NCBI GenBank assembly: GCA_003990765.1 | Contig: RBNJ01000115.1 | Coordinates: 1 to 40,970, forward strand | DNA length: 40,970 nucleotides | Origin: Jimgerdemannia flammicorona | Lineage: Eukaryota | Direction: 5' to 3' | Shown: positions 4,186 to 40,970 of the stretch, in pieces | Numbering within the stretch: position 1 is the first letter of the stretch | Layout of the letters: each line of letters begins with the position of its first letter | Notes under the pieces: model-generated | What the model saw: the letters and a program-made list of their open reading frames with translations, nothing else | The model's database searches: none | What the model was told of the DNA's origin: nothing | Made by a program: the position numbers and the translations under genes

Positions 4186-4224
4186 TCAGCCCCCACTGAA
4201 GGGTAGTCTGTCTCAGATTATTCT

Positions 4225-7990: not shown

Positions 7991-9329
7991 GGGTTAGGCC
8001 TTGGGGTGCAGCAGGGCATACTGGGCAATATTCTTGCTGAGTTCGGGCTTTCCGAAGGCTGAGGCTCCACTGGTAGAAAGTCTCCAAGCTCTAAGGTTGA
8101 GGTGTGGCCATCTGGCTCCAGTAGAGGGGTCTCAGAGGTAATTGATTCCCCTTCTTCCTGTAGGATCAAGGGCTTCCATGAAGTTGGTGGTATCTTCTGC
8201 CCATCCTTGGTGGGTTGCATGTCTGATAAGAGCTAGGATGTCTTCTCCCAAATTGTAGATCTTGAGAATTCTTTTTCCAGGCTTCTTGGTCTGGCTTTTT
8301 CGAATCTGGCTCTTTCGGATCTGGCTTCAGTTATCTCCTTTCTTCAGGGTGTGTACTGCAACATCATGACTGAGGTGAATCTTCTGATGTCTACAGTCTC
8401 AGCAATCAGGGTGTCTTCCATGGTTGCAATATCCCATTGCTCGGAAATGATGTTCCCGGCTATTTATCTCTTGTTGTCTTGGGAATCGGTACCCATCTTG
8501 ATCATAGGTTGGGGGAAGGGTAGACAAGGGGTATATTTCTGTTCGGGTGAAGAAGCCTTGTCCCCTAAATCGACTTTGTAACCTTATGGTGACCTCTTGA
8601 AAGGTAGTGGACTGTATAAGAGTAGTTGGGGGTTCTGGCCTCTGGGGTCTCTGTCTTTCTTGTTGGTCCAACAGATGACACTGATAGCAGTAGTCTCGGG
8701 GAGAGTGGAAGGCTATTTGATGTGGACATCTTTCTAGCCGGAAAGCTTTCTCTTGGTGGGTTTCTTTCTTGGGGATAATGGTAATGGTACTGGGTCCTTT
8801 CTCTATATTCCAGGGGTCATTGTCTTCAGGTGGTATCCACCGAGGGTCATCCCAGGGGATGAGTTCAGGGACTTCTTCTTCATCAAGTGCTTCTTGTTCA
8901 GGAACTTCTTAGTCAGAAGTTTCTTCTTCCTCGGATGATTCTTGGCCCCAAATTGCTTGTACTTCTGCAGCTTTGGTCACAGGTGTTTCGGGAACATGTC
9001 TGCATTTCTTCTTCTTCCTTCTATATTCTGGGTAGGCTGCACCAGACGATTTCCTTTTTCCCATGATCTTGGAGGAGTGCTCAGGACACTTGTATCTCTT
9101 GAGGCATATAGGGCATCCTTTGGCTTCCCCTGCAATGGCTCCAATAGTGATAGGGACAGTGTTCTTGGCCCACACATTGTCTTCTGGTCTGTCATCTACC
9201 AGATTGATTTGGGGATTGAGTCTGGGATCATTTCCATCTTCGGATTCTTCTTCCTCTTCTGTAGTAGACTCCTCACTGCTGGCATATTCTTTTTGAATAG
9301 TGATCTTCTTCTTCTTCTTTGATTGCTCG

Positions 9330-11740: not shown

Positions 11741-11759
11741 TCACGTCGATTTTGAAATC

Positions 11760-11777
11760 TTCCCAGTTGAGCCCCCA
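11760..11777 (-). promoter_or_regulatory. Primer binding site, tRNA-Pro type (TGGGGGCTCAACTGGGAA)
   Basis: 2 nt inside the 5' LTR boundary. Begins TGGGGGCTC like known tRNA-Pro PBSs. Identical in copy B at 25509-25526. Confidence 0.8.
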
Positions 11778-11779
11778 AA

Positions 11780-13188
11780 TGTAACATGCCAGCTCAATAG
11801 AGGCAAATTACAAGGTTGGGGGTTGATGTAGTTTGGCTTGAGCCCCCAGTTACTTTGTTAAAAGCAACAAAATGTTCTTGGTGTTTAGTGGTATAATAGT
11901 TAAGATCTGGATACTGTGCAAGTGATTTCCTTATTGGGACAGTTCTCTGGGTGTAGCAGCGATTTGTGTGTCTTTTCCTTCTTGAGTCAACTGGGAATGG
12001 CACAATTTGTATGTAGCGCAAGCGGTTTCCTTCTTGAGTGATGGGTGATTTCTGTGTAGCGCGACAATCTTCAAAAGTATGTGATTTCTGGGTGATGGTC
12101 TTGGTGCGACGATCTTTGTGTAGTGCGACGATCTCCAAAAGTATGTGATTTCTGGCAGATGACTCGATTTGGCTCACTGAGAATTGTATGGTGTGGATTC
12201 TTCCATAACAGGCTCACTGGGAATAATGGATAACTCGGATGGCTCTAATGCGGATAACCCGAAAGTGGTGGATGATGTAGATTTGGTGAACTTCTTAGAA
12301 GCGGTGGCTTAACTGGGAATTAACTCGGATGGTGCGGATTCTTCTAAATCGGCAGCTTCAACTGGGAATACGATGGATAACTCAAAATGGTGGGGTTCTT
12401 CTGGGAAATGAGATGGCGTAGATTCTTCCTGAATCAGCGGCTTCAACTGGGAAACGAACAACTGGCGGCATTCTTTGGGAAAGGGTTTCTTGGCAAAGTT
12501 ACGTCAAAGACTGGCTTCGTTTGTGTGAACAGATCACTGCGAAGTTGCATCAGAAACTGGCTTGGGCAAGGCAGCTTTCTCTGGGAATGTGGATAACTTG
12601 GAAACGGCAGCTTATTCCTTAAGCGGCGGATTATTCAAAAGGCAGCGAAGTTCTCCTTGAACTTAGGCGGCAAATCTTCAGGCTTATCTGGCAAGTGAAC
12701 CAATAGTTCCAAAGGCGGCGAAGTTCTTCCTTGAACTTGGCGGCAAAATCAGCTTTGTATCGGAAAGTGAACCGGAGTAGAAAGGGGACCAATGCTCAAT
12801 CTTTAGAGGCTTGTTTGGTATTTGTATTTCAGACTGAGGTTTTATTCACTCTTGCCTCTGGGGTAATTTATACAAGTTGGTTGCTATCTGGTTACTATGT
12901 GGCTAACTATAGATTTGCTATCTTTGGTAATGTTTGGGTGTGTCCTCTGGGTACAGGTGTGTCCACAGGACATGAGTGTGTCCGCAGGACATGAGTGTGT
13001 CCGCAGGACATGAGTGTGTCCTCAGGATACAGGTAAACAATCCTGATCTGGTGTCTTGGCTAATTATAAGTGTGGCAGGCATGAGTAACTATGATACACT
13101 GGAAGTCACATCATGTTGAGTAAGTATGCTAATTGTTCATGTCATCTGGCTAAGTTATAATTCAGGTGATATGTTTTGGTCTGTTACA
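11780..13188 (-). repeat. 5' LTR of gypsy A (1409 bp)
   Basis: Direct repeat of 2714-4185. It is 63 bp shorter, consistent with loss of one ~45-bp and one 18-bp repeat unit. Substitutions are mostly transitions at CpG. Confidence 0.95.
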
Positions 13189-20143: not shown

Positions 20144-23100
20144 AATGATAATATTTCTTTTGGAGTCTTAGATACTGGCCAATTGTTGATCTTCTCAGTT
20201 TTCTTTGGGTCTGTATGGGTTCCTTTTTTTGAGACTATGAATCTAAGGAATTTAAGTTTTTATTTCCCAAAGTAGCATTTCTTTGTATTCAGTCTCAAGT
20301 GGTTTTTGCAGGTGAGCTTGAAGAATTCCTCTAGGTAGTATAGGTATTCTTCGAAATTCACTGAATAGATATTGGAATCATCCAAGTATACAATCAGGCA
20401 GTGGTGGATCAAGGGGGCATAGACTGAATTCATCATCCTCTGAAAAGTGGGGGGTGTATTACAAAGTCCAAAGGGTATTCAGAGATATTCAAACAGTTTT
20501 TCTAGAGCAAGGAAGACTGTCTTTTGAATGTCTTTGGGGTCTATGAAAATCTCATGAAATCCTGCAAAGAGGTCCATACTGCTGAAGTATCTGGCATCTT
20601 GTAACTGGTCCAAAAGGTCATCGATTCTGGGCAAAGGATAGGCATACTTTTTGGTAACTGAATTGAGTTTCCTGTAATCCACACAGAGTCTCCATTCTCC
20701 TTTCTTCAGTACAATAAGTATAGGGCTAGCCCAGGGGCTAGTGGAGGGTTAGATGACTCCATTGTCTAAGAGTTCTTGAATGTGCTCCTTTTGAATATTT
20801 TCAAGTAATGGGGTATTCTATAGGATTTCTGCCAGATGGGTGTTGTATTTCCTGTATTTATGCTGTGGTGATATGATGGATTATATGGCAGGTTGCCATA
20901 ATTGGTTGTGAAGATATCTTGATATTTATTGAGAAGTTCTACTAGTTGTTGTTGTTGTTAAGGTGTCAATTCTTCTCTAATATTGGTGGAAGGCTTTACT
21001 GTCTCCTGGGTTGCAGAGGGGCCTTTCCTTTCTTCTGGGACCTTTTGCCATTTCCCGATAGGTTTAGTTCATAAACTTCCCTATGAGTTCAGTTGAGAAA
21101 AGGCACCAGATGTCCTATGATGATTCCTTTTGGCAAGATGATGGTCTCCCAACTTTGGTTGGTTGCTTGGGAGTGTACTGGGTTCATCTTGTCAGGGAAT
21201 GTATGTCCCTCTATGTCCAGATGGGGAATATCTTTCTTGGGTTCAAAGAAAAGGTTTCTGGGGTTGGGTGGTGCAAAGATTTTGAGGGTTGTTTGTTCTC
21301 CAGGCTCTAGGATAAGATTCTTGTGCAATCTGACTAGTTGCCAGTATACTTGCTGGGGAACATTTCTCTTGAGGTAGTTAACTTGAAGGAGGTGTACTTC
21401 CTTCCTGTCTGAACTTCCAAATCCTTTGGCTTGTCTTGTTCCTTCAGTTAGTTCAGAGACTTCTTCCAATTATAGGGTTTTGATCTTCATGAAGACCACT
21501 TGAGCAATCTTCTGTCCTCTAATAATTCAATACTATTCTGTACTACTGTTGTATAGGATGACCTTGATTTTGCCTATATATCCTGAGTCGATGGTTCCTC
21601 CTTCCACAGTTATTCCTTGTCTGGTAAGTCCAGACCTTGAGGTCAGTTAGATATAAGCTTCCTGAGGTGGCTGTATAGCTAATCCAGTTCTGATCATGAA
21701 GGTTTTTCCAGGCTTGATAGATTTATCCTCCAGGCTGTGAAGGTCATATCCTACATCCTCTGGGTGGGCTTTAGTCAGGAATTTGGCCTTGGGATGTAGC
21801 AGGGCATACTGGGTGATATCCTTGCTGAGTTTGGGCTTCCCTAAGGCTGAAGCTCCACTAGCAGAGAGCTTCCAAGCTCTGAGGTTGAGGTGTGGCCATC
21901 TGGCTCCAGTGGAAGGGTCTCGGAGGTAGTTAATTCCTCTTCTTCCTGTAGGGTCTGGGGCTTCCATGAAGTTGGTAGCATCTTCTGCCCATTTTTGGTG
22001 GGTTACATATCTAATGAGAGCTAGGATGTCTTCTTCCAAATTGTAGATCTTGAGGATTCTTCTTTCTGGCTTCTTGGTTTGACTTTTTCGGATCTGGCCC
22101 CTATTATCTCCTCTCTTTAAAGTATGGACTGCAACATCATGACTAAGGTGAATCTTCTGATGTCTGCAGTCTTAGCAGTCAGGGTGTCTTTTATGGTTAC
22201 AATATCTCATTGCTCAGAAATGATCCTGGCTGTTTATCTCCTGTTGTCTTGAGAATCGGTATCCATCTTAGTCATAAGTGTGTGGAAGAGTAGACAAGGG
22301 ATATATTTCTGTCCAGGTAAAGAAGCCTTGCCCCCTGAATCAGCTTTGCAACTTGGTAGTAACTTCTTGAAAAGTAGTTGACTGTGCAAGTGTGTTTGGG
22401 GGTTCTGGTCTCTGAGGTCTCTGTCTTTCCTATTGGTTTAGTAAATGGCACTGATAGCAGTAGTCTCAGGGAGAGTAGAAGACCATTTGGTATGGACATT
22501 TTTCTAGCTAAAAAATCTTTTCTTAGTGAGTTTCTTTCTTGGGGATAATGGTGATTATACTGGGTTCTTCTTCTGTATTCCAAGAGTCATCATCTTCAGG
22601 TAGTATCCAATGAGAATCATTCCAAGGAATGAGTTCAAGGACTTCATCTTCTTCAGGTGCTTCTTGTTCAGGGACTTCTTGATCAGAAGTTTCTTCTTCC
22701 TCAGATGATTCTTGACTCCAAATTGCTTGTACTTCTGCAGCTTCAGTTGCAGGTGTTTCTGAAATATGTCTGCATTTCTTCTTCTTTCTTCTGCATTCTG
22801 GGCAGGTTGTGCCAGGTGATTTCCTTGTTCCCATGATCTTGGAGAAGTGCTCAGGACACTTATATCTCTTGAGGCAGGTAGGGCATCCTTTGGCTTCTCC
22901 TGCAATGGCTCCAATAGTGATAGGGATGGTGTTTTTAGCCTACATATTGTCTTCTGGTCTGTCATCTACCAGGTTAATTTGGGAATTGAGTCTGGGATCA
23001 TTTCCATCTTCAGATTCTTCTTCCTCTTCTGTAGTAGACTCCTCACTGCTGGTATATTCTTTTTGAATAGTGATCTTCTTCTTCTTTGATTGCTCATAGC

Positions 23101-25934
23101 TAGTTATCTTAACTCTGTACTTCTTGCCTTGGTAGTCAAACTTGAGGACTTGTTGACCAATATTGATAACTGCATTCATTTCCTTCATCTGGTTGGTGCT
23201 AAGAATCATATCATAGGTGACAGCTTCAGTGACAACAGCTTTTGAGATAGAAAACTAAATATGTCCAAGAGAGATAGTGATATTTCATACTTCTCCAAGA
23301 GGTTGAGTTCAGGCTCCATCTGCTACTATGATGCTAAGGTTAGATAGTCTATCAATGAGCCATTGGAGGGTGTCTAAGAATTGTTTGGCAATGATACAGA
23401 TAGCTGCTCCTGTGTCTATGAGGATTTTCACTTTTTGTCCTTCAATATCTCCATATAAGTAGGTGCTGACATGTCTTTCGACTGCTTGGACAGAGATAGA
23501 AGCTGGTTCTTGCTGTGGAATTAGAACTCAGCCAGTACTAGACCTGGTGGTTCTCAGCAATTTGTTTCAGACTCCAGCTGGTGTCAGTTGCAAGAACTGC
23601 AGGAGGGGAACTTCCATCTTGGTCTCTTGGATCTTCTGCCAGGCTTCATTGTAGATGTCTCTAGACATGGTCTTTGGGGTGTACTTTTTCTTGGGCTTTG
23701 GGGCAATAGGTTCCCATTCTTCTTGTTCCATTTCTTCATCCTCTAGTAGCAACTCATTTGTTTCAAGAACAAAAGGTGAGGGGGTTCAAGGAGGTGTTTC
23801 TACCTGTTCCTCTTTATGTTCTTCATCTTCTTCTTGAATAATTCTTCTGCTGATATTTCTGGATGGTCTTCCCACAGGTCTCTTCCTTTTCTCTACTGAG
23901 TAGACTGTTTTTTGAGAGGTGATCTTGGTAGGGTATAAGTCTAGATCACTATAGTCTTCACTATTACTTGCTTCCTCAAAATCTTCCATAGGGTGGGCTT
24001 CAGTCTTCTTGTACTAAATGTCATTCCTTCAGTTTGGTGGTTCTGAGTCTCTTTAGTCACTTCTTTTGTTATCATATTCAGTAACATAGTATCCAAATTA
24101 TCCACAGTGGAAGCATTGAACTTGAGCTCTGTCTCAGATAGGATATCTTCTTTTTTCTTACTAATAACTCCTGTTATCTCTGGGTGGATAACCTTGGCTC
24201 CTCTGTGGTGAGTATCCTCTATTATCTTGGTAACTCTGATTTTCACATATGGTGAGTTTTTCAATTTGTCCAACCAGTTAGTCCAATTTGGAGCTGAGGT
24301 CTTGGATTTTATTTCTGTCCTTCTTTCCCTCCTTGACTGGCCTTCTTTCTTCAGATCTTTCTTATCCTTGAAGGAGTCCTTGTAGGGCTTTGACCAGAAT
24401 GTCTTCTATCTCTTCTTTCCTATCATGATCACTCCAGGTAGTTCCTTGTCTGACATCAAAGAATCCTTGGGCAGCATCTACTTACTCTTTGGACCTTCTG
24501 ATGCCTAGGGTGCAAACATGCTGGGCAATGTTTGGGGGAATTCCATTCATGAAGGTCATTGGACTAATGATGTCCTAGTTGGTAGCATTAAACCCAGCAG
24601 CATGCATTCTCTTCTGAATTCTTGTGAAGAAGGCTCTGGGTAATTCTCCAAGATTCATCTTCATTCCCATGATGGATTTCTGAGCCTTGTGGTGAGTTTT
24701 ATTTCCTGTATACTTTTCAATGAGCCAGTAGACCATGGTCTCATATTCTAGCTCATAAGACATTGCTGCTCATATCTGTCTCGCTAGTTCTGAATCTGGG
24801 TTGTTTGCTGTTCGATGGAAAATTCCCCTGACTGGTTCTCTGAGCTGAGCCTTATAGATGGCGATTTTTCTTTCATCTGAGAGATTTCTCAAGACTGCAA
24901 TTCCTTCAATTCCATTAAGGAATTCTCTGGGGTCTTCCTCTAGATATCCTGCAAAGGTTAGCAATGAGGTGGCCATTTCTTTATTACTTTTTTCTGATTC
25001 TGGTTCAGGTTCAGATTCTGATTCTAGTTCACTTTCTGAGCTGTCACTAGAGATAGGGGTGCTTGGGTATCCTGAGGATGGTGTTCTGGACCTTGGATGA
25101 AGTGGAATCAGTCTAGGTATTCTTGTAGGAGCTACTTCTAACTCTGCAAGAAGTTGTGGTAAAAGTTCTATTGGTGAGATTGGTGGAACTAGTATGGGGT
25201 GTCTGGCTGTAAGGTCTTGGGTTTGTGTAATTAGATCTTCTAGTTCTTATGCAAGTTCTCCAAAATCTCTAGCAGGGCTGCCTATATTATCTGGTTGATC
25301 TGATTGGAGATTTCAGGCTGTACTGCCTTCAGGTTGAGAGCCTTCTGATGCTGGATAGTTGGTAAGCCTTGATGTGATTATTTCTCTTCCTGTCCAGATG
25401 CTGGTGATAACTGGTTCTCCTATAGTGACAGAGGTTAGTGTTGTATCAAATGTATCCAGTTTGACTGTGGGTTCTTGTGAGCTGAAAAGTCATGTTGATT
25501 TTGAAATCTTCCCAGTTGAGCCCCCAAATGTAATATGCCTGGCTCAATGGAGACAAATTACAAGGTTGGAGGTTGATGTAGTTTGGCTTGAGCCCCCAGT
25601 TACTTTGTCAAAAAGCAACAAAATGTTCTAAGATTTCTGAGGTCCTTGTTGGTGTTTAGTGGTATAATAGTCAATCTGAATATCTGCAAATAATTTATAT
25701 ATCAATTTCCTAATTGGAACAGTTCTCTGGGTGTAGTAGCAATTTGTGTGTATGAATGGGTTTCCTTCTTGAGTCAACTGGGAATGCCACAATTTGTGTA
25801 GCAAGGCAATTTCCAAAAGTATGCAATTTCTAGGTGATAGTTTTGGTGTGACAATCTCTGTATAGCATGACTAGTGCTTTGAACAAATCAATTTGAATCA
25901 AATCCAGATTCAATTCATCATATGACAGTTTGAT

Positions 25935-26210
25935 CTGAATCTCAAATCCGAAGCCATCTGAATCAACTCAGATTAATCCGAATCATCTCATCCAAATTGC
26001 CTCATCTAAATCACCCATCCGAACTACCCCAATCTGAATCACTCAATCTGAATCACTCAATCTGAATCACTCAATTCAAATCACTCAATCTGAATCACTC
26101 AATCCAAATTCTCCAATTCAAATCCTCCAATTCAAATCCTCCAATTCAAATCCTTCAATCCAAATCCTCATCTGAATCCTTCAACTGAATCCTCCAATTC
26201 AAATTCTCCA
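25935..26210 (+). repeat. Left subterminal tandem array of hAT, ~13-14-bp units (CACTCAATCTGAAT / CCTCCAATTCAAAT)
   Basis: Directly visible. Also at about 33990-34200 and inverted at about 33330-33700. The right end has TCTGGATCAA repeats at about 32245-32305. Confidence 0.85.
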
Positions 26211-26310
26211 TATGACTCATATACTGGACACATCTACAATACAATATATACATACATATACACAATATATATACACGTATACATATGTACATATAAATAT
26301 ACAAACACAC

Positions 26311-28889
26311 ATGTCAACAGATCAGTCTTCAACAGTTCACAGTACTGATGATGCTTCAAGTCAAATATCCCTGATAGTTCCACACCTTCTACACAATCCT
26401 CACTCCAAAATCTAGCAATATTGTGCTAAGATAGGAGATGATGTTGTTTGTAATTATTGCAGGTAAAAAATTAAGATGCACCTATTGACACTTTTGGTTT
26501 GTTTTGACACACACATGATATTGTTTCATCCATCCCCATAAACTGCACCAGCCAGAAGTTCAAAATGCTTAGGGGTATGACTTCAAACAGGAATCAATAC
26601 ATAAAAGACAAGTACTCTGACAAAATCAAAAAGAACACAGAGATAAATAAAATTGACATCCAAGCTATAGTGGGTACATTTATCTGATTGCCCAACCATT
26701 TCTATACCAATAATGCCATTTAATCAAAAATATTTAGCCATACTCTTTGGCAGAATTTCGAAATTAGCTCATTTGCTAGATTGTATATATAGACCAACCA
26801 TTCACAACTATCAAGAGTGATCAATTGCATAGCATCTTTGGCCTCCTCAAGCATGATTTATATTTGCCAAGTGCCAATACTATTCACAAAGATGTCCTGA
26901 AGGCCTATAGGAAGGAGCACAACAATCTCTGCTAGACACTTCAGGTAAAATAAGGGCAGTACCATGACCTTTGCAAGCTGAATTATACATATAAAAGAGC
27001 TCACCAATTTAACCTCACATTCAATAAGCAGAATTTGGCAGGCAAAATTTTGTTTATGATCAACACATGGACATCCCCCAATGCAATTTTGTTTCTGGAC
27101 ATTACCGGTCATTGGATTGACCTCAATTGGTAGCTTAAATCTCTTACCCTTGACTTTGTCAAACTTGCTGGCCCTCATTCTGGAGACAACATTGTAGATG
27201 CTTTTATTAGTTATATCCAGGAGCTTGGGATTACAACTAAGATAAAAAAGGGGGACTTGCCATCAGGTCGGCATTTTGAGGGAGGTCTTAAAACAAACCA
27301 GATTTTATTGATTATTTATTTTCACATAAATTTGCTGACTGAATATTTCAAGTACAGATTTTGGCCATTATGATGGACAATGCTACAAATAACTCAATAT
27401 TTTTCAAAGTTTTAGCAGCCAGCCTCAAACAAGAAAATATGGCCTTTAGTACAGAAAACTGCCATATGCGATGCCAGGCCCATGTACTGAACCTCACTGT
27501 TCAGGACTATCTTATATACATAGACAAAACATCCAAGAGAGGAGGGGCTCTGAGTATAATTTCCAAGCTATGCAATCTGGTTATATTGGTCCAATCATCC
27601 TCACAACAACGAGACAAATTCACTACACAGTGTAGGGCAATCAGTTTAGCCCCAAAAGAGCTTATATTGGACATCTGTATACATTGGAACTCAATATTTA
27701 CAATGATCTAGTGTGCACTGGAGTTTGCTGTAGTATGTATTCTTTTTTTCTTTGGTCAGCTAAAGCAACTTATTTTGGATAATTTATTTAAAAAAAAACA
27801 AAAAAAACCAATAGATTCAACAGTGGCTACCAACAAGAAAATATGGGCCAAGGCTCTAGGTAAAAGTGAGTGGGACATACTTAGGAATGTTATCAGAGTT
27901 TTAGAAGTAAGTGGTGATTGCTCTGACTCCACACTTGTTTTGTCTACCTCCACATAATGCAATACCTCACCACATATAACTGCCAGTGTTTTGATAATTG
28001 TATGAAGGATATAGTCAAACAAACAACCCTGACAATAAGCTCAGCAATATCAGTATATAACCTTCTGATTGACTGGCTAGAGGACAAGCTTGAGAACAGG
28101 CTGGAGAGTTGTGGTGATTTATGGTTGAACCCAGATCAGAGAGACGCCATAGAGGTTGCTTTTAGCAAGCTCAGAAAGTACTACTCCCAAACAGATACTG
28201 CCATATACTCAATTAGTATAGGTATGTTGATATCGGCATATGGCCATTGCCCCTTCCAAAACAGAGAAACCCCCACAAAAGCTCACTCTCTCCTCTTTTT
28301 CAAATAGTGCTAAATCCATGCTTAAAGCTACAATACCATAAAGATCAGGGCTGGGAGCAGCACTTCATTGAGAGAACCAAGCAGGCCATAATCGAAGTGT
28401 AGTAGAAAAACTACGCGCTACCACAAGGTTCCAGCCAAAGTTCAGACAAATATGCTGAGAGATCCCTCCTGTCCTACATTTACTTCAGCAGAAAGAGGAA
28501 GAGGGAGCTGTCAGTAGAAGAGCTGCTGTCAATAGACAAACTTACCATTTATCTTACCAGTGATCATGTGATCCTGCTGGAGGGTACAGAGGTGCTCAAC
28601 TAGTGGAAGGTAGATTGTCAGATGGATATTATCAGGTGGGCATTGGGTCAATTTAACCCACCAATCTAACCACTACTCTATCCACCAGGGTGTGCAGCTG
28701 CATCAAATGGACTTCTCCAGCCTATGTGGTATGGCTCGGAACTACCTGGCAATTTCTGCCTCCAGTACTCCCATCAAGCAGGTGTTCTCAGGTGGGGTGG
28801 ACCTCATTGCCCCAAAGAGGTGTGTACTGAATGCTGAGATAATCTAGGTGTGTATGTGTCTGAAGTCTTAGTGGGGCTCAGGCTGCTAA
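26311..28889 (+). pseudogene. Intron-containing hAT transposase pseudogene
   Basis: BED finger (SKIW..VCNYC / TSN); IDTWTSPN (D intact in copy B); HWID; MDNATNN; RCQAHVLNL; WNS; KLRKYY; dimerisation domain MARNYLAI.ASSTP...VFS. Several GT-AG introns. Confidence 0.9.
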
Positions 28890-29039
28890 AATTCGGTGGG
28901 TCCTGGGGGTTCATGAATAAGTTGGTTGGCCTTATGGAATATTTAATACCTTTCAAAAATAATAAAAAGGTAAAAAACCCTGAGGACTTGGCCCAGAGTT
29001 TGTGGCCCAAGTGGGCAGTGGTCAGCAGGGTTGGCAGTA

Positions 29040-29750
29040 GTAGCAGAGGGAGTACACAGTATTTGCGGCACTTCGCCAGCAGTAAGGGGCAGCCCCAAGC
29101 TGTCAGTGCCCAGGTTGGTGGGTAGGTCAGTGGAGGGAGCACACAAAATTTGCAGTCCTCTGCTGGCAGTAAGGGGCAGCCCCAAGCCACAAGTGTCCTG
29201 GTCAGAGGGGTTGGCAGAGAGAGTATGCAAAACTTATGGTCCTCTGCCAGCAGCAAGAGGCAGCCCTGAGCTATCAGCATCTGGGTTAGTGGGTGAGGTC
29301 AGTCAGCAGGGTTGGTGGGCATAGGGTCGGCAGAGGGAGTGCACAAAATTTGCAGCCCTCCACCAGCAGCAAGGAGCAGCCCTGAGCCATAAGTATCCAG
29401 GACAAGCAGGGCAGGTGGAGGGAGTACACAAAATTTGCAGCCCTCCACTAGCAGCAAGGGGCAGCCTCAAGCTGTCAGCACCCAGATCAGTGGGTGGGGT
29501 CAGTTGGTGGGGTTGGTGGGCATGGGGTCAGTGAGGGAGCATACAAAATTTGTAACCCTCTGCCAGCAGCAAGGGGAAGCCCTGAGCTGTAAGTGTCCGG
29601 GATGGGTGGGACAGGCGGAGGGAGTGCGCAAAATTTGCGGCCCTCTGCCAGTAGTATAGGGGGCAGCTCCAAGCCACTAAGGAGTCTGGGGTGGAGGGTA
29701 CTTCTGGCAGTTGGAGGGTGCTTCTGGCAGTCAGAGGGCATTTCCGGTGG
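29040..29750. repeat. GC-rich array of about seven 85-115-bp units with a palindromic core, followed by 18-bp repeats, between the two hAT genes
   Basis: Core GAGGGAGYRCRCAAAATTTGCRGCCCTCTGCCAGCAGCAAGGGGCAGCCC recurs. The same array is in copy B at about 37055-37800. Confidence 0.85.
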
Positions 29751-29997
29751 TTGAAGTCCACTATAGATTTGAGCCCCATCACTGGTTTGGGTCCTATGGG
29801 TGCCCTGGCCCTGCACCACAGCACCGCACTGGTGGCACTGCAGAGCAGGGCCAAGGGGCCAGTAGGGCCCTGCATAATGGCTAAGCTAGTGCTACAGAAG
29901 AGGCACCTGGTCCAACCCCCCACATAAGACTGCTCAATCCATACAAAATGACTGCTTAACCCTCATGAAAGACTGTCTATCCCTCATGAAAGATTGC

Positions 29998-32040
29998 CTA
30001 ACTCTCACAAAAACTGCTCCACCTATCAGTCACAGGCCTTGATGAGCCTATCATCCATTGTGAGTATGACAACTGTTGTATCTGAGCTCTCCTCAAAGGC
30101 GATGGTACTGTGGTGGTCATGTGGTTGGAAGAAGATGACCATGTTGGCTGCAAACAGGATCTCGAAACTGTAGGTGAGGTCATACCAGACTTCACTGCTA
30201 TTCTCTCAGGTTGGGCCCTTCCTTTCTGGAACATAAAACATTACCAGGGTGACATTGTTATCTGTGTGTATGGGCAGAGAAAGGTTGCACCTGACATATT
30301 CTGATGTGACATGAGCATATGATTGAGTGAACCCTTGGCCCAGAACCTCATACTGCTAGGCTGTACTGATGGATGCCTGCCCTTGGTCCAGCCCCAGGAG
30401 CCCCAGCTTAGAAACCTGTCAAAATGGATGGCAACCAGTTAGTCCTTTTTGCATTCAGGGAGGCAGAAACCCCCTGGGCCGCAGAAACCCCCCAGGCTGC
30501 AGCACTTCAAAAAAGTGGAGCTCCTCACCTCATATGGCATGCTAAATTGTGCCAAGAATGTATGTACAGCACTGAGATCACCACCAAGCTGGCCTGCCAT
30601 ACACTCTACCAATCTGCTCAAAGAACTCCAGATCATAGCCGCCATCGCCACACAGGCTATGTCATGCTCATGTGCAGTTTGCTCTTCAATAGCACTTCTA
30701 AAGTTCCAGTAGGGGTATAGAATCTTGTATATCTCTGGATTTGTATCAAAAAGAGTATGTCAGTGAAGAGTGTGATTTATCTGGGGAGGAGTAAAAAAAA
30801 AGAGAGACGAGTGTGGGGGATTTCAGAACTCCAGAACCCACTCTTCGCCAGTATTGCAGTATACCCAATTTCCATCCAAACCCCCCCTCCTTGCTTTTTT
30901 CACCCCCTCTTTCCTGCCACCCAGTATTTGACACAATTCTCACAAATCTCATTGATGTGACAGTGAAGCTCATCACTGTAGAGGTTCCTTACTACCATCA
31001 CAACTACCTCTCTGCATTCATTAATAAAGATATGGTTCTCTTTATCATTGGTTACTTCTGCTGGCCAATGGACCCCTTGGTTGAGAATGATTAGCTTTGA
31101 TTTAAATGTAGACCCCCAAGCCTTGATAATGATATTGGTACTGCTTATGCTAAACATCTTGTCCTTGAACTTCTCTATTTGATCAGACCCCAGATATGGT
31201 TGAACTTAGGTAACTTTGAACTCTCCTTTTCAATGGAACTGAGCCCTGATCTGAGGGACTGAGATAAGTGTACAGATGGATTGCATGCAGATAGGTTGTG
31301 TGTGGATGGGTTGTATGCAGACAGATTGCATGTGGATGGGTTGCATGTGGATGGGTTACATGCAGGCAGGTTGCATGCAGGTGTGGGTGTTTTTTAGGGG
31401 GAGACTACATAAAAAATGAAATTAAATAAAACATGGAGATGGGTATTTCAGAAAAAGAGCATGAGTGAGTGAGTGAGTGAGTGAGCTGTATGCTGACAAG
31501 TTGCATGCTGACAAGTTGCACAAGTTGCACAAGATTGCTCATAAAGGCTTGCTTCTATTTCTTTTGAGATCTCTGCCACACAATGCATTGACTCAATAGC
31601 TCAGCCACCAAAGGTATACCCTACAACATCCTCCAACCTTTCTTCATCTTGATCAGATGTTGCGAATAAAGTCGGTAGATCTCACCATAGAGCTGTAGAC
31701 CCTAAGAAGAGCATGAAGTGAATCAGGTCATACTGGGGGAATTTAAACAAGTAAAAAGTAGTGGTAGAAAAGAGCAACCTACATCTACTATCGGCTGCTC
31801 TAAAAAGGCTGCCATATACATAGCTGTGAGATTTGTGAATTCCGAGGTCCAAAGGGCCACTATGAGTTGTTGTTGGAATTCACCCTCATCCCTGCTATTG
31901 TCATTGCCATCACCATCACCACTGCTGTCACCCCTTTGGCTCTCGATGAGCAGCTTGTATGCTGCCCATATGAGAAAGAATCTAACATTGTCAGTAGAGA
32001 GTATGTTTCTACCTTGAATACTCCTTCTTTTGACAATCAT
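29998..32040 (-). pseudogene. Multi-exon cargo gene of hAT-A; putative TET/JBP-like Fe(II)-dependent dioxygenase
   Basis: Inferred exons 31250-30842, 30734-30529 and 30415 to about 30008, with GT-AG introns, plus upstream exons to about 32040. HTD at 30268-30260 in YVRCNLSLPIHTDNN; distal HH at 30115-30110. Confidence 0.65.
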
Positions 32041-33291
32041 TGCAGGGTGAAAAATGAGTAGACTGGACCAACATATGAATTAAGGGTTGCTGTTTTGTTT
32101 GCTTATAATGTGGCAGAAAAGAACAAAGAAAAAGAACAAAGAAAAGAGAGAGAACAAAGGAAAGAGTAATGTCACCAAAGTGTGACTGAAAAAAAAAAAC
32201 AAGAGCAAAATGAATAAAAGAAAGGGTGATGTCACCAAAGATTTCAATCCAGATAGATCATCCAGATGGATCAATCTGGATCAATCTGGATCAATCTGGA
32301 TCAGATCATGAGACTAATCCGAGTTGATTCAAATCCATCACATAATGAATCTGAATCGAATCTCATCTGGATCAACTCCATTCATTTGGAGCACTAAGCA
32401 TGATGATCTGCTTATGCATGACAGTCTGGCAATTTAGTGGTTCTCCTTATGCAGATTTGGTGGACAACTCAATTTGGCTCACTAGGAATTATACTGGTAC
32501 AGTTTCTTCTGTATTGGCTCACTGGGAATAAACAAATAACTTTGGTAGCAAGTAACTCAGATAACTCAGATAACTCAGATGTCACAGAAACTTGGATGGT
32601 ACAAATTGGGTTCTTCTGGGAATGCAGATAACTTGAAAATAGCAGATGATGCAGATTCTTCTGAATCAGTGGGCTTCTGGGAAATAACTTGGATGGTGCA
32701 GATAAATGGATTCTTCCTGAATTAGTGGCTTCAACTGGGAATATGGCAGATAACTCGAAAGGTGGTAAAGTTCTTCCTCAAACTTAGTAGCAGACTTCAG
32801 GCTTATCTGGCAAGCAAACCAAAAATAGACTTGTTCTTTGTATTGGAAAGAGGACCAGAGTGGAAAAAGAGAACCAATGCTCACAATCTCCTAGTAGTGG
32901 CTGTAGAGCAGGCATTTCTCCTAAGTATTGCAATCCTTCTTGGATCAAGTGGCTTTTGATAGGTGTATCTCTCAAAGTATAGTAGACAGACTTGTCTTTT
33001 GCTTTTTGGATTCAATTTTTGGACTGAGGTTTATTTACTCTTATCTCTGGGGTAATTTATACATTATGGTTGCTATCTGATTGCTATATGGCTAACTATA
33101 GATCTGCTATTTATGATATGTTTGGGTGGACAGCCACTGTCCAGTAGATAGCCACTGTTCACATTATTTCCTTCTTTGGCTATATGGTTATTTATACATT
33201 TTTTGCAACAATGGTTACTGGTTACTATACTATGCTAATGTTTATATCACCTGGTTAGGTTTGAGATTGCTACATTTTGTGGTTTATCACA

Positions 33292-33744
33292 ATAGATATA
33301 TCCAGTATATGAGTAATGTAGAGAATTTAGATTAGAGAGTTTAAATTAATAGATTCAGATTAGATGATTTAAATGAGATGATTTAAATTGAACGATTTGA
33401 ATTAAGTGATTTAAATTGAGTAATTTAGATTAAATAATTTAGATTGAATAATTTAGATTAAGTAATCCAAATTGAGTAATTTGGATTGAGTAATTTAGAT
33501 TGAGTAGTTTGGATTGAGTGGTTTGGATTGAGTGGTTTGGATTGAGTGGTTTGGATTGAGTAGTTTGAATTGAGTAATTCAGATTGAGTAATTCAGATGG
33601 AGTGATTCAAATAAAGTGGTTTGAATAGAGTAATTTAGATTAATCTAAGTTGATTCAGATTGTTTCAGATTTGAGATTCAAATCAAATCATCATATGATA
33701 AATTGAATCTAGATTTGATTTGAGTTGACTCATTTAGAGTACTA
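33292..33744 (-). mobile_element. Left end of a third hAT copy (C), inverted and interrupted by gypsy B
   Basis: Reverse complement begins TAGTACTCTAAATGAGTC (decayed TIR), followed by the subterminal array and CATATACTGGA as at 26219. Confidence 0.85.
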
Positions 33745-33926
33745 TTAATAGCAATAGTCTCAGAGAGAGTGAAAGATCATTTAATACTAATATCTTCCTA
33801 GCTAAAAGGCTTTTTCCTGGTATATTTCTTATCTTAGAACAATAGTAACTATACTTAGTCCTTCTTTAGTATTTCAGAAATTATCATCTTCTGGTAATAT
33901 ATATATAGTAGAGGTTATCTCAAGAG
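33745..33926 (-). mobile_element. 182-bp fragment of a third, very decayed dUTPase-gypsy copy (C)
   Basis: Aligns to about 8681-8858 and 22451-22628 with extensive C-to-T and G-to-A change. Confidence 0.75.
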
Positions 33927-34307
33927 TAGTACTCTGAACAAGTCAATTCGAATCAAATCTGGATTCAATTTGTCATATGCCAGTTTGATCTGAATCTCAA
34001 ATCCAAAGCCATCTGAATCACTCAATCTGAATAACTCAATCTGAATCATTCAATCTGAATAACTCAATCTGAATCACTCAATCTGAATTACTCAATCTGA
34101 ATCCTCCAATTCAAATCCTCCAATTTAAATCCTCTAATTCAAATCCTTCAATCCAAATCCTCATCTGAATCCTTCAACTGAATCCTCTAATCCAAATTCT
34201 CCACATGACTCATATACTGGATGTATCCACAACACAATATATACACATGCATATACAATACATATATGTATATACATACATATGCATATGCAAACATGCA
34301 AACACAT

Positions 34308-36904
34308 ATGTCAACAGATCAGTCTTCAATAGTTCACAGTACTGATGATGCTTCAAGTCAAACATCCCTGATAGTTCCACACCTTCTATGCAATTCTTGC
34401 TCCAAAATCTGGTAACATTATGCTAAAATAGGAGATGATGTTATTTGTAATTATTGTAGGTAAAAAATTAAGATGCACCTATTGACACTTTTTGTTTGTT
34501 TTGACATACATATGATATTGTTTCATCCACCCCTATAAACTGCATCAGCCAGAAGTTCAAAATGCTTGGGGGTATGACTTCAAACATGAATCAATATATA
34601 AAAGACAAGTACTCTGACAAAATAAAAAAGAACATGGAGACAAATAAAATTGACATCCAAGCTGTGGTGGATATATTTATCTAATTGCCTGACCATTTCT
34701 GTACCAACAACACTGTTTAATCAAAAATATTTAGCCATACTCTTTGGCAGAATTTCGAAATTGGCTCATTTGCTAGATTGTGTGTACAGACCAGCCATTC
34801 ACAATCATCAAGAGTAATCAATTGCATAGCATCTTTGGCCTCCTCAAGTATGATTTATATTTGCCAAGTACCGATACTATTCATAAAGATGTCCTGGAGG
34901 TCTATAGGAAGGAGCATGATAATCTCCACCAGACACTTCAGGTAAAATAAGGGCAGTACTATGACCTTTGCAAGCTGAATTATATAAAAGAGCTCACCAA
35001 TTTAACCTTACATTCAATAAGCAGAATTTGGCAGGCAAAATTTTATTTACGATTGACACATGGATATTCCCCAATGCAATTTCATTTCTGGGCATTATAA
35101 GTCATTGGATTGACCTTAATTAGTAGCTTAAATCTCTCACTCTTGACTTCATCAAACTTGCTGGCCCTTATTCTGAAAACAACATCACAGATGCTTTTAT
35201 TAGTTGTATCTGGGAGCTTGGAATCACAACCAAGGTAAAAAAGAGAGGCTTGCCATCAGGTCAGCATTTTGAGGGAGATCCTAAAACAAATCAGATTTTA
35301 TTGGTTATTTATTTTTGCATAAATTTGCTGACTAAATATTTCAAGTACAGATTTTGGCCATTATGACAGACAATGCCACAAACAACTCAACATTTTTCAA
35401 AGTTTTAGTGGCCAGCCTCAAACAGGAAAATGTAGCCTTCAGTACAGAAAGCTGCCATGTATAATGCCAGGCCCATGTACTGAACCTCACTGTTTAGGAC
35501 TATCTTATATACATAGACAAAACATCCAAGAGAGGAGGGGCTCTGAGTATAATTTCCAAGCTGTACAACCTGATTGTATCAGTCTGATTGTCCCCACAAT
35601 GATAAGACAAATTTGCTGTACAGTGTAGGGCAATCAGTTTAGCCCTGAAAGAGCTTATATCAGATATCTGTACATGTTGAAACTCAACATTTATAATGAT
35701 CCAGCATGTGCTGGAGTTTGCTGTGGTATGCATCCTTTTTTTCTTTGGTTGGCTGAAGTAACTTGTTTTGGATGATTGAAGATTTATTTTTAAAAAAAAA
35801 AAAAAACAAAAAAAGCCAATAGATTTAACAGTGGCTGCTAACAAGAAAATATGAGTCAAGGCTCTAGGTGAAAGTGAGTGGGACATACTTAGGAATATTG
35901 TCAGAGTTTTGGAAGTAAGTGGTGATTGCTCTGATTCCATACTCATTTTGTTAGTCTCTATACTTGTTTTGTCTACCTCTATACAATACAACACCTCACT
36001 ATATATAACCGCCAGTATTTCAACGATTGTACAAAGGATATAGTCAAACAAATGAACCTGACAATAAGCTCAGCAATACCAGTATATAACCTTCTGATTG
36101 ACCAGCTAGAGGATAAGCTTGAGGATAGACTGGAGGGTTGTAGTAATTTACAGTTGAGCCCGGATCAGAGAGATGCTGTGGAGGTTGCTTTTAGTAAGCT
36201 CAGAAAGTACTACTCCCAAACAGATACCACTGTATACTCAATCAGTACAGATATGTCAATGTTGGCATGTGGCCATTGCTCCTTCCAAAACAGAGAAACC
36301 CCTACAAAAACTCACTCTCTCCTCTTCTTCGAACAGTGCTGGACCCATGCTTAAAGCTACAATACCATAAAGATCAGGACTGGGAGTAGTACTTCATTGA
36401 GAGAACCAAGTAGGCCATAATCGAAGTGTACTGGAAAAACTATGTACTGCCATAAGGTTCTGGCCAAAGTCTGGACAAATTTGCTGGGGGATCCCTCCTG
36501 TCCTACATTTACTTCAGCAGAAAGAGGAAGAGGGAGCCATCAGTAGAAGAGCTGCCATCAATAGATGAACTTACCATTTATCTCACCAGCAACTGCATGA
36601 TCCTGCTAGAGGGTACAGAGGTGCTCAACTAGTGGAAGATGAATTGTCAGATGGGTATTGGGCCAATTTAACCTACTAATCTAACCACTGCTCTACCCAC
36701 CAGGGTATGCAGCTATATCAAACAGACTTCCCCAGCCTGTGTAGCATGGCTTGAGACTATCTGGCAATTCCTGCCTCCAGCACTCCCATTAAGTGGGTGT
36801 TCTCAGGTGGGGTAGACCTTGTTGCCCCAAAGAGATATGTGCTGAACACTGAGACAATCTGGGCATGTATGTGTCTGAAGTCTTGGTGGGGCTTGGGCTG
36901 CTAA
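34308..36904 (+). pseudogene. hAT transposase pseudogene, copy B
   Basis: Collinear with 26311-28889; same motifs and introns. Confidence 0.9.
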
Positions 36905-38053
36905 AATTTGACAGGTCCTGGGGGTTTATAGATAATTTGGTTGGCCTTATGGAATATTTAATACCTTTCAAAAATAATAAAAAGGTAAAAAACCCTGAGA
37001 ACTCGGCCTGGAGTTTGCAGCCCAAGTGGGCAGCAGTCAGTGGGGTTGGCGGTGGTGGTGAAGAGAGTATGCAATATTTGTGGCCCTCTGCCAGCAGCAA
37101 AGGGTAGCCCCAAGCTATCAGTGCCTGGGTTGGTGGGCAGGTTGGCAGAGGGAGTATGCAAAATTTGTGGCACTCCGCTGGCAGCAAGAGGCAGCCCCAA
37201 GCCACAAATGTCCTGATCGAGGAGTTGGTGAAGGGAGTGTATAAAACTTGCAGCCCTCTATCTATAGCAAGGGGTAGCCCTAAGCTGTCAGCACCTGGGT
37301 CAGTGGGTGGGGTCAGTTAGCAGGGTTGGTAGATATGGGATCAGTGGAGGGAGCATGCAAAATTTATAGCCCTCTACCAGCAGCAAGGGGCAGCCTCAAG
37401 CTGCAAGTGTCTGGGACAAGCAGGGCAGGCAGAGAGAGCATGCAAAATTTGCAGCCCTCTGCCAGCAGCGAGGGGCAGCCCCAAGCTGTCAGCACCTGGA
37501 TCAGTGGGTGGGGTCGGTCAGCAGAGTTGGTGGGTGTGGGGTCAGCAAGAGAGTGTGAAAAATTTGCGGCCCTCTGCTGGCAGGGGGCAGCCCCAGCCAC
37601 AAGTATCCAGAATGGGTGGGGCAGGTGGAGAGAGTATGCAAAATTTGCAGCCCTCTGCCAGTGGTGTAGGGGCAGCCCCAAGCCACCAAGGAGTCTGGGG
37701 CAGAGGGTGCTTCTGGTAGTCAGAAGGTGCTTCTGGCAGTCAGAGGATGCTTCTAGCAGTTGGAGGGCATTTCTGGTGGTCGGAGGGTACTTCTAGTGGT
37801 TGAAGTCCACTACAGATTCGGGCCCCATCACTAGTTCAGGTCCCATGGGCACCCTGGCCCTGTGCTGTAGTGCTGCACCAGCAGCACTACAGAGCAGGAC
37901 CAAGGGGCCAGTAGGGCCCTGCATAATGGCTAAGCTAGTGCTACAGAAGAGGCGCCCAGCCCAACCCCTCACATAAGACTGCCCAACCTACATAAAATGA
38001 CTGCCTAACCCTTACAAAAGACTGCCTATCCCTTGTGAAAGATTACCTAACCC

Positions 38054-39185
38054 TTACAAAAACTGCTCCATCCACCAGTCCCAGGCCTTGATGAGTCTAT
38101 CATCCATTGTGAGTACAATGACTGTTGTGTCTGAGCTCTCCTCGAAGGTGACAGTGCTGTGGTGGTCATGTGATTGGAAGAGAATGGCCATGTTGGCTAC
38201 AAACAGGACTCCAAAACCATAGGTGAGATCATACCAGACTCCTCTACTATCCTCCCTGATTGGGCCCTTCCTTTCTGGGACATAAAACATTACTGGGGTG
38301 ATATTGTTATCTGTATATGTGGGTAGAGAAATGTTATGCCCAACATATCCTGATATGACATGAGCATACAGTTGGGTGAACTCTTGGCCCAGGACCTCAT
38401 ACTGTCAGGCTGTGCTGGTGAATGCCTGCTCTTAGTCCAGCCCTGAGAGCCCTAGCTTGAAAATCTGCCAAAATAGACAGCAACTGGTCAGTCCTTTTTG
38501 CATGCAGGGGAGCAGAAACTCTCCAGGCCACAGAAACCCCCCAGGCTACAGAATCCCCCCGGGCTGCAGCACCCCAAAAAAGCAGAGCTCCTCACCTCAT
38601 ATGGCATGCTAAATACACCAAGAATGTATATAGCCATACTGAGATCACTACCAAGCTGGCCTATCATACACTCTACCAATCTGCTCAAAGAACCCCAGAT
38701 CATGGCCACCATTGCCACATAGGCTATGTTGTGCTCATGTGCAGTTTGCTCTTTGACAGCACTTCTAAAGTTCCAGTAGGGATATAGAATCTTGTGCATC
38801 TCTAGAATTGTATCAAAAAGAGTATATTAGCAAAGAGTGTGATTTATCTAGAGAAGAGAAAAAAAAAAAAGGGAGACAAGTGAGGGGATTTCAGAACTCT
38901 GGAACCCACCCTTTGCCAGTGTTGAAGTATATCTAATTCCTGCCCAAACTCTCTCTCCTTGCTTTTTTCGCCCCCTCTTTCCTACCACTTGGTATTTAAT
39001 GCAATTCTTGCAAATCTCATTTATATGGTGGTGAAGCTCATTGTTGTAGAGGTTTCTTACCATCATTGCAACCACCTCTCTATATTCATTAATAAAGATA
39101 TGGTTCTCTCCATCATTGGTTACTCCTGCTGGCCAATGGACCCCTTGGTCAAGAATGATTGGCTCTGATTCAAATGTAGACTCCC
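38054..39185 (-). pseudogene. Cargo dioxygenase-like gene, copy B (5' part displaced by the LINE insertion)
   Basis: GYVGHNISLPTYTDNNITPVMFYVP...GVWYDLTYGFGVLFVANMAILFQSHDHHSTV. The HxD His has become Tyr (TAT) at 38315-38317. Confidence 0.65.
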
Positions 39186-40970
39186 GGGTGTGGCTGGGGA
39201 AGGTGTTGGACTGCATTGGAGTCCCCACGACATTTAGGGCCTCTATGTTGAGTCTGCTGGAAAGTAGTCGGGCTGCACTAACGTGTAATGGTCACCACGG
39301 GAGGGCGTTTCCCTTGGGAAGAGGAGTACCTCAGGGGGACCCTCTATCCCCTATTCTCTATGCCCTTTCACTGGAGCCATTGATGGATAGAATTCACCGG
39401 AAGATAGCAGGCCTCTCTATCTATGGTATAGTGTGGAAGGTGGGGGCCTTTGCTGATGATATGGTGGTTGGACTTGGATCTGTGGTGGATGTAGAGGAAC
39501 TTCGGGAGACGATGGAATGGTACGAGGCTCATTCCGGGGCGAAACTCAACTGGCATAAGTGTGAGACAATGGTGCTAGGGAATGGGTTGGTGGGTGGGGA
39601 CGTCATTGAAACAATTGTCCCTACTGGTGAGGTGGTGCGATATCTGGGCATCTTCCTCTCTGTCTATGGTTCTGTCTTGCTAAGGGTGTGGTGGGAGAGC
39701 AAGGTGCATAGTTGGGGGGAGACCCTTCGAGGTTGGGGAGGCCGCCATATCTCTTTGGCAGGGCGGGTGTCGATCCTGAATGTATATTGGTTCCCTAAGC
39801 TATGGTATGTGGCGTATCATCTGGACTTCCTGGCGTGGGTAGTGAAGAAGCTCATAAAGGTGGCTAGGGATTGGATTTGGGCAGGGAGGAGGTCCCAGGT
39901 CAGTTGGGATACTCTTGCAAGACCGGTAGTCAGGGGTGGGCTTGGCCTGGTGGATTTCCCTAAAAAGCTGCACTGCCTGAGAGCCTGGTGGTTGAAGAGA
40001 GCTGTGGATTTGCATGGCGGCGGTTGGGTGCCTCTGCTGCAGAAGGTATGGGAGATGCATACGTCCCCTCGAGGGTCCTCTGGGGATCTGCTCTCTTTGG
40101 GAGGCTGAATGGAGTTCGGAGGCTGTGGTTCAAGGGGTTTTGGTGGGGAGTGGCTGAGGGGGCACACCGTATTGGCCTGCGCTGGCAAGGCGATGAGGGG
40201 GAGGTGGCGTGGGGGCCTAATATGTGGCGCTAGGATAGGCTGCTCCTGGGGGGTACTCCCTTGGCTACATTCGATATTGGAGAGGGAGTGGAGTATCAGC
40301 AGGGGCTTGGCCGGGATCTTTGGCCAGGTGGCTGGCAGGCAGTTGGGATCAGAGAGGAGTGGGACTGGGTGGGCATCTGGTCTTGGAGTGCTGAGGTACG
40401 GTGATGGCTCCCTCCCAAGTACTGGGTGGTATGGTGGCGAATGTTGCAGAGAAATGTTATGCTGAATTTCCACTCAGGGCATTTGGTGGAGGGTGGACAG
40501 TTTGACTGCGAGGAGTGTTATGGTGTTGGGCAAGCTGGGGGTTATGTACAGATGCCGGAACATTGGCTGGGGGAGTGTGAGGTCTTGGGGGAGTTTTGGG
40601 CAGAGATAGGAGATAGACTGGGTGTTGGGCGTCGGCTGGTGGGGGAGGGGGGTCGCTGGGAGGACTTAAAATCTTGGCTTGTGGGTGGGGTGGGAGATAG
40701 TTGGCTCACTGTAGGATGGGTATTGGCATTATGGGTGGGATTGGCAGGCCATTGGCTTTTTGTATTTGAGGAGGGGCAGTGGCTGGGGCTAGGTGCGAAG
40801 GTGTTACAGTGGGCGGAGCTGGTGGGGGATCTGCTGACCGGATGGTGGGTGGGTTGGGGTCCTCAAGGAGGACGACATTGAGGTTTAGTGATGAAGATCT
40901 GTGAGCAGAGTGGTGGGAGGGTGGGGATAGTGTTCGACAAAGTGGTCTTTCACAGGGAAGGAGTAGGGGG
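39186..40970 (+). mobile_element. Relatively young 5'-truncated L1/Tx1-like LINE (family B); ORF2 RT to C-terminal zinc region ends at 40881
   Basis: RGVPQGDPLSPILY, FADD, SGAKLNWHK, RYLG, ISLAGRVSILN, RGGLGL. After an apparent frameshift near 40080 comes WLPPKYWVVWWR..CEEC..EHWLGEC. Retains many CpGs. Confidence 0.92.

Follow-up and report, generated by a model that had tools for sequence, protein, structure and literature searches.

A spliced gene for a putative TET/JBP-like dioxygenase within two decayed hAT transposon copies of Jimgerdemannia flammicorona

We analyzed a stretch of 40,970 bases from Jimgerdemannia flammicorona (assembly GCA_003990765.1, contig RBNJ01000115.1, positions 1 to 40,970), hereafter called the window, which contains no N and has a G+C content of 43% and a CpG observed/expected ratio of 0.16. 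The window is made up of nested repeats, including Ty3/gypsy-type retroelements, a reverse transcriptase (RT) fragment of a retroelement without long terminal repeats (LTRs), and two copies of a hAT DNA transposon, designated A and B. A real, spliced gene is located within the terminal inverted repeats (TIRs) of the hAT element, occurs in both copies and was killed by transition mutations. We consider it probable that the two copies are old hAT elements which carried, in this gene of about 310 codons, a 2-oxoglutarate (2OG)/Fe(II) dioxygenase of the TET/JBP kind that would have countered silencing by methylation. The coordinates of all features are collected in Table 1.

Copy A possesses the TIRs that are a feature of the hAT superfamily. 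Its left end starts TAGTGCTTTGAAC, its right end finishes at 33744, and the termini of the element are TAGTRCTYTGAAC, starting with TAG. Of the first 80 bases of the left end, 64 agree with the right end read as its reverse complement, and the inverted match extends over at least 115 nt. The left end of copy B has the same base as that of copy A at 70 of the first 80 positions, while the left flanks of the two copies differ. In a blastn self-comparison of the window, 25866-31117 is collinear with 33921-39185 at 82.7% identity over 5.3 kb. Both copies display the same order of transposase, an array of repeats of about 84 nt, and then the gene on the opposite strand. The transposase is split into many open reading frame (ORF) pieces. 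A transposase with a C-terminal dimerisation domain, another feature of the superfamily, was found in copy B, where Pfam Dimer_Tnp_hAT matches 36755-36901 above the cut-off of 21.4 bits (E 2.3e-6, 27.7 bits); the match at 28614-28844 in copy A is under this cut-off (E 9.8e-4, 19.3 bits). Further hAT-like blocks can be recognised in the ORF pieces of copy A. The units of the G+C-rich (57%) arrays between transposase and gene each open with a short inverted repeat, GCAGAGGG ... CCCTCTGC, in both copies. The part of copy A from 31250 to 33290 is otherwise unexplained and contains, besides ORFs of 100-118 aa that lack Pfam matches, tandem repeats resembling GGATGGGTTGCATGC. Within it, a segment of 156 nt (32621-32776) shares about 70% similarity with a portion of the gypsy LTR (3181-3335, 12247-12401) and may have been left by an earlier nested insertion.

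The gene consists of three exons on the minus strand, in the same place and orientation in both copies. The first-pass annotation had described a spliced gene inside the hAT TIRs, convergent with the transposase, and this description was borne out; the peptides it quoted are likewise present on the minus strand at the places it gave, in stop-to-stop frames. The introns of copy A, at 30841-30735 (GTGGGT..CCAG) and 30528-30416 (GTGAGG..ACAG), are about 110 nt long, with equivalent sites in copy B. When the exons were joined by coordinates, one frame was read from start to stop with zero frameshifts in A and in B; copy A has its ATG at 31157 and its TGA at 30007-30005. P0007, a spliced homologue (see below), has its conserved blocks at the same distances, with 12 aa separating GYT from PYWNF and 26 aa separating PYE from LG, and this confirms the splice sites. 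A search for an upstream exon matching the N-terminus of another homologue, P0003, found nothing significant. A frameshift had previously been claimed for copy A and was rejected, since the joined exons read in a single frame; a TGA stop accounts for the break between 30206 and 30205. Two cancelling 1-nt gaps, 19 nt apart, were observed in the exon 2 alignment (30560-30600 in A against 38630-38665 in B), and may denote a compensated frameshift of about six codons in one copy or an alignment artefact.

Both copies of the gene are dead, as had been stated before. Premature stops number five in copy A and two in copy B, one of which (STA*QY) is common to both, and every stop was found by reading to be one transition away from a sense codon present in the other copy or implied by the homologue P0001. 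Copy B is moreover cut by the insertion of a long interspersed nuclear element (LINE), which left it without promoter and without about 13 of the first codons. The HxD motif reads ...PIHTDNN... in copy A and ...PTYTDNN... in copy B, where the His is lost. The consensus peptide quoted by the first-pass annotation is a reconstruction, of which the HTD is kept by A and replaced by YTD in B. In the region of the distal His both copies read ...HDHHST..., with HS where the relatives have HG.

A phmmer search with the exon 3 ORF of copy B (116 aa) against 1.84 billion representative proteins yielded six matches at E<=0.001, four of them real, namely P0001 (77% identity, E 3e-54), P0002 (48%, E 3e-25), P0003 (40%, E 3e-10) and P0004 (37%, E 3e-8). 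The two others were dismissed as repetitive proteins near the threshold. P0003 is an intact protein of 374 aa, collinear with the gene over residues 92-343, and through it P0007 (259 aa) was reached. All relatives are environmental records. In tblastn searches of the homologues against the window (P0001, 9e-62; P0002, 5e-32; P0003, 9e-15 and 2.6e-8 for its C- and N-terminal parts), matches fall at the two loci only, in three collinear blocks per copy. P0001, P0002 and P0004 begin near the exon 3 boundary, as expected if gene callers read the last exon alone. Word-indexed searches retrieved no longer homologue with the 116-aa ORF as query, only P0007 with P0003 as query, and only P0003 and P0001 with profile A3. 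The P0004 cluster comprises 28 members at >=90% identity on different contigs, and HVN replaces HVD in two of the eight aligned members, suggesting that the family is multi-copy and decaying in other organisms as well. We thus have a real eukaryotic family whose genes bear introns and which is very rare in the collections.

The catalytic residues were evaluated on a family alignment of 15 rows, in which each catalytic column was counted over the 14 rows covering it. The His of HxD is conserved in 13 of 14 rows, the Asp in 12 (Asn in the other two) and the distal His in all 14; 52 residues separate the HxD His from the distal His, as counted on the translation of the copies. The family therefore displays the His-x-Asp...His triad at conserved positions that is a feature of TET/JBP enzymes. 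The N-x5 which the first-pass annotation placed in front of HxD lacks conservation among the family members. Most rows have an Arg after the last strand (DDRL, DERL, HRT, TRS), which is absent there from the P0004 cluster. In the ESM Atlas, P0007 obtained a recognition value of 2505, over the mark of 2300, and its 30 named matches are made up of 8 PF20515 clusters and 22 PF12851 (Tet_JBP) clusters. Two of the PF20515 clusters, from Basidiomycota, carry the name 'Tet-like 2OG-Fe(II) oxygenase superfamily domain-containing protein', and the top match of P0007, a basidiomycete cluster bearing PF20515, is also that of P0003 (score 0.96), whose recognition value of 2137 is under the mark. The nearest clusters come from Basidiomycota and Mucoromycota and, together with the introns of about 110 nt, indicate a fungus. 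This link to Tet-like families is made by language-model features, not by profiles. CcTET, NgTET1, CMD1, TET2 and JBP1 share with the family the layout of H-x-D, about 50 residues and H, and Tet_JBP is among the language-model neighbours of the family, but sequence similarity to these enzymes was not detectable. The TET/JBP-like identity of the predicted product, proposed by the first-pass annotation, is thus partly supported: the triad and all 30 language-model neighbours agree with it, whereas a Pfam profile match and a confident fold were not obtained. Support for a TET/JBP-like fold is indirect and comes from these neighbours, from weak Foldseek matches to 2OG hydroxylases and cupins, and from a motif order that parallels PE-type TETs by eye (both treated below).

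Transposons with such genes have been described in rust fungi by Kojima 2025 (PMC12730594). TET/JBP genes are reported there from seven DNA-transposon lineages of Pucciniales, among them hAT7, with 20 TET+ families spread over six Puccinia species, and TET enzymes are proposed to let transposons escape methylation silencing or hypermutation. The first-pass annotation did not count these genes as known standard cargo of hAT; TET cargo in hAT and the anti-silencing idea are already in print (PMC12730594). The window element resembles the TET+ hAT7 elements of Puccinia in being a hAT of about 8-10 kb with a TET/JBP-type gene besides the transposase, in residing in a host whose repeats show C-to-T hypermutation, and in the role proposed for the enzyme (PMC12730594); its 7.9 kb resemble the 8.1-9.8 kb of the TET+ hAT7 consensi. 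Differences exist in the termini and the enzyme. hAT7 is defined by a 7-bp target-site duplication and its termini start CAACGGTGGG or CAGCGATGGG (PMC12730594), whereas the window element begins with TAGTGCTTTGAAC and its inverted ends extend over at least 115 nt. Three terminus strings of the window (10-13 nt) and an altered fourth are absent from the Kojima supplement, as far as its entries were covered (to 400 characters). The hAT7 enzyme is of PU-type (...IGWRK..., ...N-x-x-H-x-D..., ...F-[TS]-R-L-G...), while the window enzyme gave no PU match by HMMER, bears no close resemblance by eye to the PU-type of rusts and looks PE-like. Kyakuja-Dileera-Zisupton and Plavaka elements also travel with TET/JBP genes (Iyer et al. 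2014, via Kojima 2025, PMC12730594), with AG-type enzymes in Kyakuja and Zisupton; they follow the same principle with another transposase superfamily and another TET type (AG or PU). A full-text literature search found no paper besides Kojima 2025 on hAT with TET, and none for PF20515.

By motif layout, the lineage appears closest to the PE-type TETs of Tuber, Morchella, Ascobolus and Agaricus (PMC12730594), from which it differs in keeping HxD. Compared by eye, the two show the same block order over the whole domain, with about eight collinear blocks in common, including E-[IV]-V-A-M-V-x-R-N, G-Y-[ST], F/I-W, Y-G-[IVF], H-G-[TS] and ...R-L. The first strand reads EVVAMVVRN in the window and EIVAMVYRN in the PE-type protein of Tuber borchii (Table S1 of that paper); written more broadly for both, the shared order is a strand with E-[IV]-V-x-x-V-x-R-[ND], a G-[YH]-S/T loop, an F-W helix, a metal site, F-F/Y ... 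Y-G-[IV] ... N ... H-G-T and a final ...R-L. Further PE-like blocks are the G-Y-S/T loop, which follows a basic stretch, the helix A-x-x-[FI]-W, the turn [ML]-D-x-x-G and the metal site, and towards the C-terminus F-[FY]-x-x-x-Y-G-[IVF] ... N ... H-G-[TS] and a last strand ending in R-L. The PE-type is, like the window family, invisible to Pfam-level searches. Relative to the PE-type, the window family has about four extra residues in the interval from the conserved R to the first His, and exact searches found the family motifs absent from the sequences of Table S1 as available.

Alternative explanations were weighed against this evidence. That the region contains no gene, but chance open frames in decayed repeat DNA, might be argued from the stops in both copies and the lack of Pfam matches. 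It is refuted by natural homologues and by the collinear match to the intact P0003 over two canonical introns with exact spacing, and we give it practically no credence. Several results weigh against a hAT-borne, silencing-countering TET/JBP enzyme. In the HMMER comparison that the first-pass annotation had suggested, no Pfam Tet_JBP, 2OG-FeII_Oxy_6 or other 2OG profile matched the window pieces or P0001-P0004 at E<=10; P0007 and P0008 gave no relevant Pfam match at E<=5, and a significant match to PF12851 or PF20515, as would characterize TET/JBP, was not found by profile. There was no 2OG or Tet match among the 59 window ORFs scanned with Pfam, PHROGs returned nothing meaningful for the family, and sequence and profile searches of the PDB gave 0 matches at E<=10. 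The AlphaFold models of P0003 and P0007, computed from shallow 8- and 15-row alignments, are of low confidence, with predicted local distance difference test (pLDDT) scores of 38.8 and 42.6, respectively. With the P0007 model, Foldseek listed nothing at E<=0.001 and no TET chain among the matches listed, the best being 2OG prolyl 4-hydroxylases (5iat, E 0.018, prob 0.96) and cupins at E 0.018-0.1; with the P0003 model it gave noise (herpesvirus gB and others), with TET2 at rank 44 (E 3.5). The structural comparison proposed earlier thus produced weak 2OG hydroxylase and cupin matches, not a confident fold. Moreover, the 2OG-binding Arg could not be placed among the family rows, the PE link is a reading of printed sequences without a statistic, and the hallmark HxE of the PE-type is H-[TV]-D in the window family, which makes the family PE-like and not PE as defined. 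The escape role itself is stated to be not experimentally validated (Kojima 2025, PMC12730594). These results could also mean that the product is a 2OG/Fe(II) or cupin-fold protein other than a nucleic-acid base oxygenase and a useless passenger of the hAT, since the best structural matches are prolyl 4-hydroxylases, RmlC-like cupins and lysyl hydroxylase instead of TETs. We regard this as improbable: the model behind those matches has the low pLDDT given above, all named Atlas neighbours of P0007 belong to PF20515 or PF12851 and none to another 2OG family, and the motif order parallels the PE-type by eye. PE-types are themselves marginal in HHpred (e 1.4 to CMD1), yet comparison of their AlphaFold-DB models with CMD1, NgTET and CcTET reaches e<1e-5 (PMC12730594), which would explain the negative profile searches of the window family.

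The carriage by the hAT is likewise open to objection. Just two adjacent copies were seen; a premature stop is common to them, and they may both derive from one already dead copy. An 8-bp target-site duplication is expected in the hAT superfamily. None was found for copy A, whose heavily mutated flanks AGCATGAC and TTAATAGC differ, with ATAGCA common to both at 3-4 nt off the ends. The ratio of nonsynonymous to synonymous substitution rates (dN/dS) of the gene between the copies is 0.36, the lowest of the six frames (0.44-0.83 in the others), with 43/37/55 differences at the three codon positions; this is weak evidence of past selection, and most of the divergence is taken as neutral decay since the margin is small. 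It is accordingly conceivable that the gene is no hAT cargo at all, but belongs to a nested non-autonomous element (Helitron, IS3EU, EnSpm or the like, the carriers known for the PE-type), or that A and B arose by segmental duplication from a one-off composite locus. The pair lies 8 kb apart in one window with its shared stop, copy A contains the foreign-looking LTR-like segment in its interior, and hAT is absent from the PE-type carriers listed in the abstract of Kojima 2025 (PMC12730594). We nevertheless find this explanation unlikely. Copy B has its own left terminus and a left flank unlike that of A, so that the repeat unit begins precisely with the hAT terminus, which is what separate insertions would produce. 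The surroundings of the gene yielded neither termini nor a second transposase or Rep/helicase; the ORFs scanned in copy A beyond the hAT transposase have no Pfam match, and those of 31706-32777 (three of the 59 scanned) have none at E<=0.01. The gene has diverged as much as the remaining element, with differences at 154 of 891 coding positions, that is the same 82.7% identity, and TET+ hAT elements of equal size exist (Kojima 2025, PMC12730594).

The decay of the two hAT copies is dominated by transitions, with 719 against 28 transversions. CpG is conserved at just 2 sites in 5,164 aligned positions, and 125 aligned CA/TG pairs represent CpGs that were once present and were mutated on opposite strands. 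In addition, pairs of the CA/TA (135) and TG/TA (109) kinds suggest C-to-T change at CpA too. Such differences constitute a CpA signature like that of repeat-induced point mutation (RIP). The same bias is seen in the gypsy LTR pair (2714-4185 against 11780-13188), with 76 transitions to 1 transversion, and between 6356-12017 and 20144-25802, with 619 to 66. TCG is the commonest NCG context in the hAT pair (15/35) and the gypsy pair (18/41), not in the LTR pair (4/33).

The other repeats of the window are mostly retroelements. The Ty3/gypsy-type retroelements contain RT, RNase H, integrase, a zinc knuckle and a dUTPase. A Ty3/gypsy-type LTR element with a dUTPase domain occupies 2714-13188 on the minus strand and is found again at 20144-25802. 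Its LTRs, each about 1.4 kb long (2714-4185 and 11780-13188), are identical at 90.4% (blastn) or 94.5% (MAFFT). The dUTPase is located between protease and RT (7679-7993, E 7.8e-20), and a second, more decayed copy of the element has the same dUTPase at 21650-22171. An inverted repeat of 208 nt, 90% complementary, occupies the two ends of the window (1-208 and 40686-40893); it lies in gypsy RNase H-coding sequence and represents two related retroelement copies in opposite orientation. The RT fragment that cuts copy B sits in exon 1 of its TET-like gene and removed the start of the gene together with the remaining element. RVT_1 was matched on the ORF 39050-40105 (E 9.9e-14, Pfam), where 40105 marks only the end of the open frame.

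Table 1. Coordinates of the hAT copies, their TET-like genes and associated features in the window.
Feature	Position	Strand	Basis or remark
hAT copy A, both ends present, 7.9 kb	25872..33744	+	inverted ends and collinearity with copy B
hAT transposase remnants, copy A, many ORF pieces	26780..28844	+	Pfam Dimer_Tnp_hAT 28614-28844
~84-nt direct-repeat array, 57% G+C, copy A	29021..29680		family D1, 6 copies at 29043-29613; blastn self-matches
TET-like gene A, exon 1	30842..31157	-	first ATG 31157, frame open from 31205; tblastn P0003 residues 92-167, E 0.002
TET-like gene A, exon 2	30529..30734	-	tblastn P0003 residues 174-227, E 5e-4
TET-like gene A, exon 3 (HTD, distal His, stop 30007-30005)	30005..30415	-	tblastn P0001, E 1e-60
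hAT copy B, right part missing	33927..39185	+	left end like that of A; collinearity with A ends at 39185
hAT transposase remnants, copy B	34777..36901	+	Pfam Dimer_Tnp_hAT 36755-36901
~84-nt repeat array, copy B	37034..37710		family D1, 5 copies at 37058-37512; self-matches
TET-like gene B, exon 1, 5'-truncated	38910..39183	-	splice sites, joined translation, tblastn
TET-like gene B, exon 2	38596..38801	-	splice sites, joined translation, tblastn
TET-like gene B, exon 3, YTD replacing HTD	38054..38464	-	tblastn P0001, E 9e-62
Non-LTR retroelement RT fragment cutting copy B, not hAT	39186..40105	+	RVT_1

Under the explanation we favor, the hAT element would have carried its transposase and the three-exon dioxygenase gene tail-to-tail. 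By analogy with the known systems, the active enzyme may have oxidised 5-methylcytosine, or another methylated base, on the DNA of the element, which would have relieved it from methylation-based silencing and from the ensuing C-to-T hypermutation. The methylation and mutation process of the host would finally have won over both copies. The principle and the association with hAT are published, so no new question is opened here; what may be new is a hAT with termini unlike hAT7 and a PE-like enzyme lineage with HxD. We suggest only tentatively, and with more doubt than confidence, that this is a fourth transposon-borne TET-like type, a sister of PE which keeps the ancestral HxD and was captured independently by a long-TIR hAT unrelated to hAT7, in a fungal lineage outside the surveyed ones. 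If true, the fourth type would extend the enzyme diversity and the list of carriers.

Transposon-borne DNA-demethylating enzymes are a clear counter-defence against genome silencing, and both copies show the outcome when the host wins, as C-to-T and G-to-A transitions account for almost all of their destruction. The instance adds a hAT unlike the published hAT7 and an enzyme lineage which annotation pipelines will overlook because the standard profiles miss it. That the enzyme serves the element becomes more credible with every independent capture.

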